Assembly: GCA_964016885.1 (NCBI GenBank)
Contig: OZ024740.1
Span: forward strand, 418,252,001 to 418,316,000
DNA length: 64,000 bases
Origin: Eledone cirrhosa
Lineage: Eukaryota
Reading direction: 5' to 3'
A program made the translations under genes and the position numbers. Positions 15,834-51,106 of the stretch are shown piece after piece. The number at the start of each line of letters is the position of its first letter. Position 1 is the first letter of the stretch. The notes below the pieces were generated by a model that saw nothing but the letters and a program-made list of their open reading frames with translations, was not told the origin of the DNA and did not search any database.

Positions 15834-16291
15834 TATACAGAGTAAGTGAAGGTGGCGCCAATGTTTTCTCCTGCCTCCAACGATCTCCTATAAAATTTAA
15901 CCTCAACTTTCCAGAAGTCTCCGACCAGAATATTTCAGTTTCGACATGAATATCTTGAAGGAGCCATTAAAAGCAAAAACTGAAATTGCAGTATGCTGGC
16001 TGGCGGCTGCAGTACATACACAGCTATGCTTTAATCGGATGTGAACTTATGAATACATATCTCACCGTCGCCTCCATCTTTCTCTCTCACACACATGTGT
16101 AGGTGTGTATGTGTATGTGCGGTTCTCTAGCGAGTGTGTATTTGTATGTGTGTCGCCGTATAAGTCTACGCTCGTATGCATATGTGCATGAGAGTGCACT
16201 GCACGTGTGCTTGTATGAATGCAACTATCTGTACACACATACACATATATATAAATGCATCTATATCTTTATTATATAGAAAGATAGAAAT

Positions 16292-16337
16292 GACTTCTAC
16301 AGAGCTAGAACTATTTCATTCGTATGAAATCATCAGG
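16292..16337 (-). ncRNA. Hammerhead ribozyme, family A, within fold-back insertion 16284-16387
   Basis: CUGAUGA-uUUCauacGAAu-GAAA-UAG uucuagcu CUG-UA^GAAGUC; 5' strand of stem I truncated. Confidence 0.7.
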
Positions 16338-16964
16338 ATGATTTCATACTAATGAAATAGTTCTAGTTCTGTAGAAGTCATTTCTATATATATATATATA
16401 ATATATATATAACATATTATATATATAATATATATAACATATATATATATATATAATATATATAACATATATATATATAATATATATAACATATTATATA
16501 TATAATATATATAACATATTATATATATAATATATATAACATATATATATAATATATAAAACATATATATATATATATATATATTATATATATATATATA
16601 TATATATTATATAATATATATATATATATATATATATATATATATATATATATATAACATATATATATATATATATATAACATATATATATATATATATA
16701 TATATATATATATAACATATATATATATATATATATAACATATATATATATATATATATATATATATAACATATATATATATATATATATATATATATAT
16801 ATATATATAACAACAACAATGATAACAACAACACCACCAACTACAACAGCAACACAAACAAGGAAAAGGTCTCCTTCGCCCAGACGGCAAGGAAAACCCT
16901 CGACTATCTGCCAGTAGATATAACCAAAGCGAAGGAGCTACTGGCAGAGGACAAAAATTACAAA

Positions 16965-17912
16965 ATGTACGGAGAAAATGGTGCATTTTCGACCCCCCCC
17001 CCCCCAACTCCCCCCCATCCCCCCACCCCGGAACTAAAAAGCCAGAGACTCCTAAACACTGTCATGTTTAGGACAATCTCAAATAAAAGCAAAAAACCAG
17101 CTCCACCATCACAGAGTGAGATAGAGCTGGTTTTAAAAGACGTCATGAAAGACATCACATTCATCCAGAAGGATAGACTCTACGGGAGTCTATCCATTCT
17201 CATGAAGGACAGGGACACAGCAGTGAAACTGTCCATAAAACCTATTACATCCACCGCATACACCTTCTACCCTACGTACATGGGTAGAAGGACACAAAAA
17301 ATAAAAATCCACACCATCCTGCCGATTATGGACATATGGTGGGTTTTGACAGGTTTCCTGAACCTGGATGATGACACGCTAGTGTCCATGCGAAAGGCAT
17401 CGGGTAACGCGTTCAGTGGAACGAGCCTCGAACTTGTAGTTCAAATGAGGCCCGAAAGGATCGCCCAGATCCTTGAACGCGTCATACTGGATGATCAAAC
17501 TTTCATCAACATTACCGTTGAGGGTAGGCGGCCCTCGTGTTACCTCTGTGGAACCAGAGGTCACCTGAGGGCTGTCTGTTCCCAACTTAATAAGAAAACC
17601 CCAATCCTGCCTACACCACCAACAACTGCACAACCAACACAACCACCACAACCACCACTACAAAAACAACAACCACAGCTCAAACCAAAACAAAACAATG
17701 TCCAACCCATCCCCTCCCCCCCCACACTAAAAAAAACAATTCCCAAAACACCTGCACCACAAACACAACCCGAAAATATACCCCTCCCCTCCAACGCGGA
17801 AGATGACCCTCGTTCGTCGTCAGACGAGGAGGAGCACTTCCACACAATCAAAAGAAAAAAAAGAAAACACACCTTAGACACACAAATGAAAACAACCCTC
17901 CCCAAAACATAA
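16965..17912 (+). CDS. LINE ORF1 (gag-like, CCHC knuckle, Pro-rich tail); probably originally extended to ~18399
   Basis: EGRRPSCYLCGTRGHLRAVC. Confidence 0.8.
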   Translation: MYGENGAFSTPPPPTPPHPPTPELKSQRLLNTVMFRTISNKSKKPAPPSQSEIELVLKDVMKDITFIQKDRLYGSLSILMKDRDTAVKLSIKPITSTAYTFYPTYMGRRTQKIKIHTILPIMDIWWVLTGFLNLDDDTLVSMRKASGNAFSGTSLELVVQMRPERIAQILERVILDDQTFINITVEGRRPSCYLCGTRGHLRAVCSQLNKKTPILPTPPTTAQPTQPPQPPLQKQQPQLKPKQNNVQPIPSPPTLKKTIPKTPAPQTQPENIPLPSNAEDDPRSSSDEEEHFHTIKRKKRKHTLDTQMKTTLPKT

Positions 17913-18392
17913 CACTGACACCAACACAAAAGAGCACACAACAACAGCAAACAAAAAACACCACACAAAAACAAAAACATGCATACACATACATAAACAC
18001 AAGAAAAAACTGTTAAACATTGTGTACAACAACAATTTAATAAAAACCCAAGGGCCTAACTTCACCCAGGCAGGGGATTTCCCCCACCTCAAAATGATTA
18101 AGGCCCCAAAGGACACTTATAAAACTCTAAAAGACAACTTCAAAGAGGACGTGCCCCCCCCCCCCTGCGTCGGGCCCATTAACCGCGTCCTCCTAAAAAA
18201 AACTACCCCACCCCCTCCCCAAACACCCACACAACTCCAAACACCCCAACCACGCAACACACTGATGCCCCTACACTTCCACAAACCACCACCCCACCCA
18301 ACAACCAATCCCCCACCCTCATGGAAATTGTGCGGCCCGATACCCGGGACGCAGAGAGGTAAGTGCCTTTTCTCTTCACCACCAACAAGGCT

Positions 18393-48058: not shown

Positions 48059-49382
48059 CACCAGGATGGCTACATTGGAGTACATTATAGTGGCTATGGT
48101 TATGGTTATTCTTTTTTTACAATTTGTAGAAATATGTCTCTACTATTTTTACTAGTAAAATACTTTGATTTTGTACATATAAACCCAATTTATGTAATAT
48201 ATAATTGTTTCTACAATTGGTACAAGGCCAGCAATTATTCCAGGGCATTACTGGTACTTTATTTTATCGACCGCGCAAGGATGAAAGGCAAAGTTTGTGA
48301 GAGCACTGCTCCTCACAAACCCTAGGCGTTGGAGGGGAAGCCTATTTAGTCGCTGACCACTGGGCCGTGAAGAAGGTTGTACTGGATTGCATGGTACCTG
48401 TAGCAGGTAGAAGCCTGACCTGAAATATGTCTTTGTCAGCTGAGCTATATATGATGAAAGTTCTAGCCAAGAGACTGGTGTATGTCGTTGGTAATATGGT
48501 CGGTACCATACAAACCCGTTAGATTCTCAGCAGATTTATCTAAAACAACCTCTATCTCATACGACACATCTTAGAGAGGTTTCAGTTGAGCTCTGATCAA
48601 GTTAGATCAATCTACTGCCTCCAGTGGTGTATACTATCTCTACTTATTGGCTGTCCTAAGTGCAACCGGTTTCTGTCCCGCTTTCAGAGGTTGGATTGGT
48701 TCCATGTACAGAAGCATCTGCTCGGTGGTCAGAATAAATGACCACTTATCAGAACCTTTTACAAATCATGCGCTAAGTTCGTTAAGGGTATCCCTTCCCA
48801 CAGACCCTGTAAATATAGGATCTTGAGTCAATGCTACGGAATTTCAGGAGGGAGTTACTTATATTTATTGAAAAAAAAAAAATACCAGCAGCGAATTTGT
48901 TTATGCATCAGTAAACAAAATACTACAAGGGAGCCTCTATATGGTTACTCATCCTGCTAGAAACAGTAGTCAAATTCCCTTCAATCTACACCTTGTCATC
49001 AGAACGATGGAAGGACATATTAAATAAAGTAGTCTAGATTAAACTATGTGGAAGGCTTTGATGATAGAGCTAAAACAACAACAACAAATGTTATAAAGTG
49101 TAAAGGTATAATTTGAAATGGCAGTGGATTGTCAGGTGTCAACCAGGTGACAGTCAGGTGACACAAGTTACAAGGTGAATCAGATGTCAAGTTAGTAAAT
49201 CATTAGGTGACAGTTGCGTGACCAGCAATCAAAATTCAATAATAGAAAAATAAACGGGTAAAGGAAATGATTTGATGAACAAAATTGTATTAAATTTTTC
49301 TTCTCATCCTGGGGAATGCGGTTGTTGTTTAGCCCTAGGTCGACTCTGTTCGAGCAGATGTAATGGGAATGTATTGTTTTAA

Positions 49383-49606
49383 ACCTTTAGCATTTAAATT
49401 ACTGTATATATACTATTGTATTTTCATTGTAAAGGCTTTATCTTATATAATTATCTCACATGATATCGAATCTACAAGATTTTGATATTATTTATTTTGA
49501 GAAAATGACCTTAACATAAGTGTGAGCCACCAGTTACAGCCAGTTTGAACAGAATGAGGTGAGAGAATTCTGGCCGGATATGGCCGGCGGTTTAAATGCT
49601 AAAGAG
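49383..49606. mobile_element. piggyBac-type MITE with TTAA TSD
   Basis: Homologous to 8039-8244. Confidence 0.8.
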
Positions 49607-50270
49607 TTAATGTAATATGTGAATATTTGTAAGAGTTAGATGTCATTCAGTTACGTAATCTCTCATATAAAAAAGATACAGTTCAGTATGTCTGAACTTT
49701 AGAATAAGTGCTGCCTTCGAACAGACATCTCATGTTTAAAATAACTTTCTAAAGTGTAATATATCTTCCTCGCTCAACCGACCCGTAACTTCTGAGGGAG
49801 TCGTAGGGGCGACGTATTGACATACGGCGTTTCTAGGGCATTTAAAAAACCAAGATGAGCCCAACTCCTCCCCAAGTCTGAATACAACAGATTTCTTCCA
49901 GATAAGGATATATATATATATATATATATATATATATATATATATATATATATATATATATATATAATTGGTGATGGATGCTTAAAGCGTCCGTTTGCGG
50001 TAGGCTGTTTTAGCACTCGATGCTCTCATAGAGCAGAGTATGATATCACAGAAAAAATCTTAAGAAAATCTGCTTCGTAGAATCAAGTCGCATCTGAGGA
50101 CCTTGCAATATTCAAGGTCAGGTTCGATCATCACATCCATCGTGCCTCGGGCTGGTCGCCAGAGAAACGATTGTAATATGTCCAATAAATTCCATTCGTC
50201 GCAACACTGGTTTTCTTTTTTTCTGTTATATATATATATATATATATATATATATTTAATATATAGAAAA

Positions 50271-50364
50271 GCTTCTACAGGACTAGAACTGTTTCATTCA
50301 GGAGAAATCACCAGGAAGCCCTGATGATTTCTCCTGAATGAAACAGTTCTAGTCCTGTAGAAGC
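50271..50364. ncRNA. Back-to-back pair of family A hammerheads (minus 50271-50319, plus 50321-50364)
   Basis: Minus: GCUUC-CUGGUGA-uUUCuccuGAAu-GAAA-CAG uucuaguc CUG-UA^GAAGC; the plus copy has an intact CUGAUGA but lacks the stem I 5' strand. Confidence 0.8.
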
Positions 50365-51106
50365 TTTTCTATATTAAATATTTATACTCTGCTTTGTATT
50401 GAGTACCTTACTTACTGTGGTTACCCCTGATTGAACCCGGAATAAACTTATATATATATATATATATATATATGTATATATATATATATATATGTATATA
50501 GATATATATATATGTATATATATATATATATATATGTATATATATATATATATGTATATATATATATATATATATATATATATATATATATATATATGTA
50601 TATATATATATATATATATGTATATGTATATATATATATATATATATATATATATATATGTGTGTGTGTGTGTGTGTGTGTGTGTGTGTGTGTGTGTGTG
50701 TGTGTGTGTGTGTGTGTATAAAGTCAAGAAACACATATATATTTAAACGTAAGCAGAGATGCATATATGAGTGTAGTCCACCTGGCTCAATGAATTAATG
50801 AACTAAATAAATAATCATTGATCAGAGGGAAAAAATCGAGAGATAGAATGGAAGTAAGAAAGAGATATAGAGGAAGAATCGACCCCAGTATTAGACTGGT
50901 ACTTTTTTATCGACCTCAAATGGCTGAAAGGAAAAGTTGACCTCGGCAGGATTTGAACTGAGAGAGCAGAGAGCCAGAACGAATACCGCAAAACATTCTA
51001 TTCGCCATTTTAACGACTCTTCCAATTTACTGCCTGTGATATGATATGTATGTATGGTCCCGTAACTCTTGAGGGAGTCGTAAGGGGGCCATATTGACAT
51101 ACGGTG

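Follow-up and report, generated by a model that had tools for sequence, protein, structure and literature searches.

A non-coding repeat family with a hammerhead-like motif in the TA microsatellites of Eledone cirrhosa, probably copied by Penelope-type twin priming

A stretch of 64,000 nucleotides of the Eledone cirrhosa genome (assembly GCA_964016885.1, contig OZ024740.1, positions 418,252,001 to 418,316,000 of the forward strand; hereafter the window, in which positions are counted from the first letter) contains short, often palindromic sequences that adjoin (TA)n arrays, carry a motif resembling a hammerhead ribozyme and are referred to here as family A. Analysis of these sequences in the window and in the 3.0-Gb genome makes it rather probable that family A is a non-coding retroelement family of about 0.53 kb, which is copied by Penelope-type target-primed reverse transcription with twin priming, i.e. 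with both strands of the target serving as primers on one RNA. It is likely a new family, of a known sort of genome parasite, the non-autonomous rider of Penelope-like elements.

A search of the window with the 15-nt arm motif CTTCTACAGNNCTAG returned 8 occurrences against 0.93 expected, and the 6 exact ones all fall at the four places named in the first-pass annotation, the palindromes at 16284-16387 and 50262-50373 and the single arms at 39672-39715 and 3515-3540. The young unit at 50262-50449 consists of a 112-bp palindrome with a 4-nt centre (50262-50373) and a tail of 76 nt. Its short, outer arm (50262..50315, minus strand) owns the 5' GCUUC, has all five pairs of stem I and the core sequence CUGGUGA, and ends in (TA)n, 14-21 nt beyond the predicted cleavage site. 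The centre AAGC (50316..50319) is the reverse complement of the GCUU with which this arm begins, and the long, inner arm (50320..50373, plus strand) contains CUGAUGA (50321-50327), GAAA (50340-50343) and the stem III strands ACAG/CUGU, with cleavage predicted after GUA at 50359/50360 and the upstream partner of stem I absent. The conserved tail or 'long end' (50374..50449, plus strand), which had been overlooked, ends in ...GGAATAAACTT and is followed by (TA)n. The unit could be aligned to the genomic locus L025 over 131 of 135 nt, at 97.7% identity.

The other three window copies are less complete. The copy at 16264..16387 belongs to an older subfamily (loop II AUAC, GAAGUC) and lacks the long tail; the centre of its palindrome (16284-16387) is short by about 8 nt (TCATCAGG joined to ATGATTTC), and about 14 nt to the left of the palindrome (16264-16283) match the start of the tail of the older subfamily. 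The single arm at 39672..39715 (minus strand, in the hammerhead sense) starts with UGAUGA and ends in (TA)5, 10 nt past the predicted cleavage site; a suspected tail remnant beyond this end rests on a 7-mer and is not secure. The copy at 3512..3558 (plus strand) is an internally deleted unit that misses about 125 bp and retains tail sequence, the first 28 nt of the short arm being fused to the middle of the tail (AGTACCTTATTCACTTTGGATA); it lies between (GA)n to its left and (TA)n to its right. Two earlier descriptions were not confirmed. The palindromes had been described as two hammerhead ribozymes back to back, and no copy in the window contains a complete motif: in the 50262 copy, the plus arm has the core and only one of five stem I pairs and the minus arm has stem I and reads CUGGUGA, the 16284 copy misses C3/U4 in one arm, and CUGAUGA is kept in the window only by the plus arm at 50321 and the minus arm at 16331-16338. 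The description as 'ribozyme-only' insertions that occur only as 30-110 bp pieces is not tenable either, because the units carry tails and copies of about 0.53 kb exist.

The 112-bp palindrome was also used as a query against the genome from which the window comes. At least 2062 first-look candidates were obtained, and all of the 40 places that were scored were near full length, with identities of 89-100%. Twenty-nine palindrome loci, one of them the window's own, were fetched with this query, and in all 29 exactly one side carries a conserved tail of about 78 nt, which ends in ...GGGATAAACTT followed by (TA)n, while the opposite side breaks off 14-21 nt after the predicted cleavage site. For the older subfamily, of which the 16284 copy is a member, at least 1502 first-look candidates were obtained, and its homologous tail measures about 95 nt. 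The genome contains 3759 occurrences of the exact word GCTTCCTGATGATTTC, compared to 7 of the control. A random genome sample of 400 kb held four family A copies, which are too few for a census, and the numbers given here therefore come from counts of exact patterns and from the first 43 places met along the genome.

The architecture of the copies was characterized in an unbiased sample, the first 43 GCTTCCTGATGATTTC arms in genome order on contig 1, which were classed by script. Thirty of them (about 70%) meet an inverted partner head-to-head, with the joint exactly at the 5' boundary of the hammerhead-like motif, nine run into a conserved upstream region, and four fall into neither class. 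The partner contains an arm in 24 of the 30 cases and only tail sequence in 6, and the joints are diverse, comprising breaks after CAGG, CAG or GAA, tail-only partners and fillers. A short 3' end is combined with a long, tailed one in 28 of the 30 head-to-head arms; of the other two, one is short/short and one was flagged as long/long, which inspection by eye revealed to be a misflag. Simple copies can have either end (six short, three long), and therefore an independent choice of ends predicts mixed pairs in about half of the cases, in contrast to the 28 of 30 observed. The short ends lie 10-25 nt past the predicted cleavage site, in agreement with the earlier estimate of about 10 nt, and the pieces are, as had been proposed, retro-copies that keep sequence on both sides of that site.

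The 4-nt centres provide a second constraint. Among 260 copies counted in the whole genome by exact patterns, 151 have a centre that is part of the tailed arm and 109 one that is part of the short arm, and in the 29 fetched loci the numbers are 13 and 16, respectively. Palindromes with tails on both sides were found at 74 places (a few of them unrelated), mostly in subfamily A2, and their centres vary, including two complete 5' ends, fillers of 0-10 nt, and AATC and GATT separated by filler. Centre-break deletion accounts for some centres (the 16284 copy and the second copy in locus L002), and its products are indistinguishable from joints made at insertion. Taken together, the short/long rule and the two orientations of the centre are best met by two complementary DNAs (cDNAs), one per target strand, made on one RNA.

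An origin from a single cDNA is an obvious alternative, and the first-pass annotation had offered it in the form of a reverse transcriptase (RT) that stalls at the folded ribozyme and switches template. In such a fold-back or snap-back reaction, synthesis of a single cDNA would proceed to the RNA's 5' end or halt at the folded motif, whereupon the cDNA would turn back and serve as its own template until it can be joined to the (TA)n on the far side. The short/long rule would follow naturally, and the near-perfect mutual copying of the two arms around a loop of 4 nt, as well as the halt of the short arm, which always comes early, in a UA-rich stretch or at a microhomology with the flank, would be as expected. 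However, fold-back ties the loop to the tailed arm, which disagrees with the short-arm centres in 109 of the 260 copies and 16 of the 29 loci. In addition, double-tailed palindromes with filler between two complete 5' ends require two cDNAs, and a mismatch between a CUGGUGA and a CUGAUGA arm recurs in 8 copies. Short-arm centres and variable double-tailed centres are not obtainable from a single self-folding cDNA, and thus a simple stall-and-fold-back origin of the inversion is unlikely.

The insertion sites agree with a Penelope-type reaction. In accordance with the earlier description, (TA)n adjoins the units: of the 29 loci, 28 have (TA)4 no more than 35 nt from the short side and 26 have it no more than 30 nt from the tail side, compared with a background of 12% of random 30-nt windows. 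Runs of at least four TA repeats account for 8.7% of the window and for 9% of the 400-kb sample, where the share is 2-27% per 100 kb. A target duplication is unreadable inside (TA)n. The short ends vary by a few bases between copies and track the flank, so that both of two copies in (CT)n end in ...TTCT and one copy in (CA)n ends in CATCAG. Family A shows the insertion footprint of Penelope-like elements: a microsatellite target, a copy in inverse orientation next to the 5' end, a tail on one side only and 5' truncation. A large share of the (TA)n tracts of the genome is occupied by such elements, which matters for repeat annotation.

These results can be combined in the following scheme. Most genomic copies are short 3'-terminal copies that start at the first base of the motif, and they were probably inserted into (TA)n and other microsatellites by the Penelope-type reaction. 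One target strand would prime at the 3' end of the RNA and yield the long arm, and the other would prime within the same RNA, in the UA-rich sequence that lies 10-25 nt beyond the predicted cleavage site, and yield the short arm. Both cDNAs would reach the 5' end of the RNA and be joined there, with the 4-nt GCUU kept from whichever cDNA got there. The 5' end of the RNA would probably be the transcription start, set by the TATAAATA box 23 nt upstream in long copies, and the enzymes would be supplied in trans by Penelope-like elements, for example the one at 61-63.7 kb of the window.

The parent of the short copies could be traced. The search for longer copies that the first-pass annotation had called for was successful, yielding copies of about 0.53 kb without an RT frame. 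Their upstream region is common to the long copies for at least 400 nt, begins after (TA)n, and is 5'-truncated in its various copies at -75, -135 and -165. No open reading frame (ORF) was detected in the longest copies of family A, which thus lack the frame encoding RT and GIY-YIG that characterizes an autonomous Penelope-like element. As at least 400 nt of upstream sequence are shared and contain no ORF, full-length family A is about 0.53 kb and non-coding; its 3' part comprises the hammerhead-like motif and, behind it, the tail of about 78 nt. The family is therefore non-autonomous, one of the two options considered at the outset, and the Penelope-like ORF of the window is situated elsewhere.

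The 5' ends are not evenly spread along this parent, and cluster, as initially noticed, at the boundary of stem I and CUGAUGA: most copies begin or are joined within a few bases of GCUUCC. In four sequencing runs of one study, with contigs of unknown kind, likeness to the unit starts most often at 50320 (64, 62, 62 and 12 contigs); apart from these starts the contigs showed variants of the family, and neither an empty site nor RNA ends were found in them. The sequence TATAAATA is present 23 nt upstream of GCTT in five of eight distinct long copies, and a start at the corresponding distance would fall in ...TCA/G. This arrangement suggests that a short transcript from a putative TATA box 23 nt upstream accounts for the clustered 5' ends.

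The motif itself was characterized by statistics on 119 arms. The sense arm reads GCUUC-CUGAUGA-UUUC(N4)GAAU-GAA-ACAG(N8)CUGU-A/GAAGC, the slash marking the predicted cleavage site, and it contains the core of a type I hammerhead, with CTGATGA in 77, GAAA in 113, and GTA followed by G in 107 of the 119 arms; the variant CTGGTGA is found in 10. The stem I pairing GCUUC:GAAGC of subfamily A1 is replaced by GAUUC:GAAUC in A2. This compensatory change from C-G to A-U is present in many copies, and all five pairs of the stem are formed in one arm of 33 of 50 palindromes. Stem III has four pairs, with 13 changes from C-G to U-G among the 119 arms, and the 4-nt loop of stem II is the most variable spot between subfamilies (UCCC, UCAC, AUAC, UAAA, CUUC). 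The minimum-energy fold of a 54-nt arm is a three-way junction of -11 kcal/mol.

It should be noted that several results weigh against the interpretation of family A as a hammerhead-bearing RNA copied by twin priming. Concerning the motif, stem II has just three invariant pairs and is closed by U-U at positions 10.1/11.1 in 115 of the 119 arms, shuffled sequences fold as stably as the 54-nt arm (z = -0.73), and the Rfam hammerhead models (RF00163 and relatives) did not match family A at the gathering score or at E <= 10, in a search that included a 101-nt stretch with the best copy. Because Rfam gave no match, the motif is termed hammerhead-like, and its cleavage is a prediction. Concerning the RNA, the family A unit was found in no run on record as RNA, so that the transcription start, the template ends and cleavage are all deduced from DNA. 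Concerning the enzymes, a Penelope-like element with the 3' end of family A was not found, the one in the window ending in a different family, and it is therefore solely the insertion footprint that points to a supply in trans. Concerning the joints, the 43-arm sample is conditioned on an intact 16-mer, and the 6 of 30 joints with a tail-only partner could be later deletions and not insertion products. Lastly, twin priming on one RNA requires that the arm is copied twice, and one RNA copied twice should yield equal arms. Nine of the ten CUGGUGA arms own the GCUUC end, and eight of these nine are short arms with a CUGAUGA long partner; these pairs are not explained by twin priming, and they may descend from a palindromic source copy.

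The last point leads to a second alternative, in which a palindrome-plus-tail of 190 bp is itself the source unit and is copied whole via a hairpin RNA, so that the palindrome would have had one or a few origins and the two orientations of the loop would mark lineages. All 29 near-identical copies have one layout and a uniform 4-nt centre, and the arm mismatch, CACC opposite GATG, is confined in its 8 copies to the centre AAGC and is found in 0 of 13 with GCTT, both of which are easily understood on this assumption. The diversity of joints in the unbiased sample is not, with CAGG preceding just 479 of the 3759 intact 5' ends given by the GCTTCCTGATGATTTC words. Furthermore, the ends of the short arms vary from copy to copy and track the flanking repeat, and every combination of loop type, arm variant and tail variant is encountered. 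As the explanation of the family, copying of a single source unit is improbable, while a contribution of whole-unit copying in addition to twin priming is probable.

Two further alternatives can be given far less weight. Family A shares with true non-LTR (long terminal repeat) retrozymes the small size, the lack of coding capacity, the type-I-like hammerhead motif and the presence of Penelope-like elements in the genome, and the first-pass annotation had considered retrozyme-like units. A retrozyme, however, would be transcribed in tandem, cut by hammerheads on both sides, circularised and reverse-transcribed, and the pattern of a tail end and an arm start separated by 0-30 nt had a single match in 3.0 Gb, while no head-to-tail tandem was present among about 100 loci read. 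In addition, the ends of the copies are fixed and not permuted, and every arm spans the predicted cleavage site, and thus a retrozyme in the strict sense is very unlikely. A miniature inverted-repeat DNA transposon of the Tc1/mariner or Stowaway type that targets TA would also produce short palindromic units between TA repeats, but it is contradicted by the one-sided tail, as the prevailing unit is asymmetric (TATAGAAA... at one end, ...GGGATAAACTT at the other) and has no terminal inverted repeat, and it fits neither the nested 5'-truncated series with its 0.53-kb parent nor the RT-type ORF of the window that is flanked by the same layout. A tRNA-derived short interspersed nuclear element (SINE) and a Helitron-like element were also considered and rejected: the tail has a T-arm-like stretch, yet an A box was not seen by eye, and a Helitron has a 3' hairpin and inserts at AT, but the ends of family A do not seem to fit its termini.

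The layout of family A has parallels in other families of the genome, among them the Penelope-like sequences of the window. A (TA)n-flanked solo of about 75 nt at 42631..42705 (minus strand), assigned to a family C from the start, is real and equals the 3'-terminal approximately 75 nt of the Penelope-like element of the window, and it has at least 16 copies with 100% identity genome-wide. The main copy of this element is located at 61041..63671 (plus strand), with family C in sense at its 3' end. Its ORF (61028-62668) had no Pfam match; the nearest Atlas clusters carry HTH_animal, RVT_1 and GIY-YIG, which is a lead only. An inverted, 5'-truncated copy (60832..61040, minus strand), which comprises about 210 nt of the 3' end and thereby also family C, abuts the 5' end of the main copy, so that the pair is arranged head-to-head, as in family A. 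Many family C solos (42540-42630; loci L108-L121) have larger flanks in common, namely (TA)n followed by AAATAAATGTACGTATG... downstream, and a 40-nt CACACAGAAATATATATACATTTCTGTGTG repeat as well as a 37-nt family A fragment with the CUGGUGA variant upstream; a part of them may be copies of a composite repeat. Two decayed pieces of the long interspersed nuclear element (LINE) type lie near family C and are unrelated to it, one at 18576-20697 (plus strand; Exo_endo_phos and RVT_1 at 18.6-20.7 kb) and one at 43607-45335 (minus strand; RVT_1 with E = 3.6e-29 at 44.3-45.3 kb).

A second family of the same genome contains a hammerhead that is recognized by Rfam (RF00163, Hammerhead_1; 34-38 bits, with 18 of 74 scored matches above the cut-off). 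Its copies (L070-L081; e.g. L070:1350-1720 and L076:1440-1790) have a 3' region of about 170 nt that ends in (TA)n, an AT-rich upstream part in the longer copies, a 5' end that likewise begins with GCUUCC, and two alternative 3' ends. They are flanked by (TA)n and form head-to-head palindromes, and both palindromes examined are of the short/long type. A third motif is present at 60597-60643 (plus strand), 58011-58057 and 3672-3718 (both minus strand). It contains CUGAUGA, a long stem II, and GAAA followed by UGCGCAUA, and resembles a minimal hammerhead of the Penelope type in which the loop of stem III is palindromic; the copy at 60597 ends in (TA)n at 60787.

Other repeats of the region were noted in passing. 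A repeat that dwells in (TA)n at the L045 region (block B2, 52162-52350) starts with AACGAAGG...GTGGTAAGGAACCAG and ends in a palindrome of about 90 bp (GACCCCGACGG...CCGTCGGGGTC); repeats with the AACGAAGG start are often situated right beside family A (flanks of L003, L088, L150, L152, L165 and L168). A repeat that ends in (ATC)n/(ATG)n near ...TTTTACGTCCGCTTTTCCCTGCTTGCAAGG... and also lies beside family A (L005, L010, L029, L091, L092, L127, L147 and L168) is probably a SINE with a trinucleotide tail. A near-perfect palindrome of 116 bp (59269-59384) stems from another sequence family. Together with hairpins or palindromes at 27482-27605, 35864-36033 and 47806-47933 it scored like a microRNA, and the microRNA 'hits' of the Rfam search were only hairpins and TA/TG repeats. 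A stop-to-stop open frame of 1208 amino acids at 29627-33253 (minus strand) had no Pfam match at E <= 0.01.

Penelope-like elements are among the known systems closest to family A. According to Craig et al. 2021 (PMC8557442), they insert as 5'-truncated copies, often accompanied at the 5' end by a copy in inverse orientation, bear a 'tail' on one side only and favour microsatellites, which for the Hydra clade are (TA)n; family A resembles them in heavy 5' truncation, an inverted 5' copy, an extension at one end and a microsatellite target. The same text describes hammerhead motifs, placed in the terminal repeat, and non-autonomous derivatives with common 3' ends such as MRC1 of Chlamys (PMC8557442). 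The one-sided extension is about 78 nt in family A, compared to 30-40 bp in that description (PMC8557442). Unlike Penelope-like elements, family A has no ORF and reaches at most about 0.53 kb, and no autonomous element with a matching 3' end was found.

An in vitro system has been called for to explain the inverted repeats, tails and microsatellite bias that accompany the integration of Penelope-like elements (PMC8557442). Family A supplies natural insertion products by the thousand; they are very short, and their two 3' ends and head-to-head joint are readable to the base. The short/long rule (28/30) and the loop orientations (151:109) are quantitative constraints on integration models. A tentative generalization is that Penelope-type integration is by rule twin priming on a single RNA, with one nicked microsatellite strand priming at the 3' end and the other at the first internal simple-sequence match; at present this is a possibility that we hold with less confidence than the scheme for family A. 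If true, it would account together for three long-standing oddities of Penelope-like elements, namely the pseudo-LTR in inverse orientation, the 'tail' at one end only and the preference for microsatellites. Family A would then serve as a minimal natural reporter of the reaction, since its TATA-driven RNA of about 135 nt would begin with the first base of the ribozyme and be copied nearly whole from both sides.

Twin priming was reportedly described for LINE-1 by Ostertag and Kazazian in 2001: both target strands are said to prime on one RNA, at its 3' end and internally, and the outcome is said to be a 5' segment in inverse orientation next to a 3' segment, where the two meet with a small duplication or deletion. 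Compared with LINE-1, family A would differ in that about 70% of its arms are in inverted joints, that the internal priming site is nearly fixed, apparently through its likeness to the (TA)n target, that the whole 5' module is duplicated, and that the enzyme would be a GIY-YIG/Penelope-type RT.

With non-LTR retrozymes, as described by Cervera and de la Pena 2020 (PMC7229834) and by Li, Clavereau and Pollet 2026 (bioRxiv 10.64898/2026.07.22.740005), family A has in common that it is a small, AT-rich, non-coding repeat, with a motif resembling their type I hammerhead. These studies also report that metazoan non-LTR retrozymes co-occur with Penelope-like elements and are thought to be derived from their terminal repeats, and that solo retrozyme monomers are known (PMC7229834; bioRxiv 10.64898/2026.07.22.740005). 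Retrozymes are, in these descriptions, defined by tandem repeats that give rise to unit-length circular RNA, whereas family A is dispersed, with one tandem junction, and its motif is unscored by Rfam. Family A resembles 'solo' retrozymes and does not pass the tandem test by which retrozymes are defined. It also illustrates that hammerhead-bearing riders need not be tandem 'retrozymes'. A further short, dispersed, non-autonomous retroposon that bears a hammerhead is the SINE-like Sm-alpha of Schistosoma. Family A differs from it in that tRNA-type A and B boxes are not evident, that a TATA box is proposed instead, and that the footprint of its insertions is Penelope-like.

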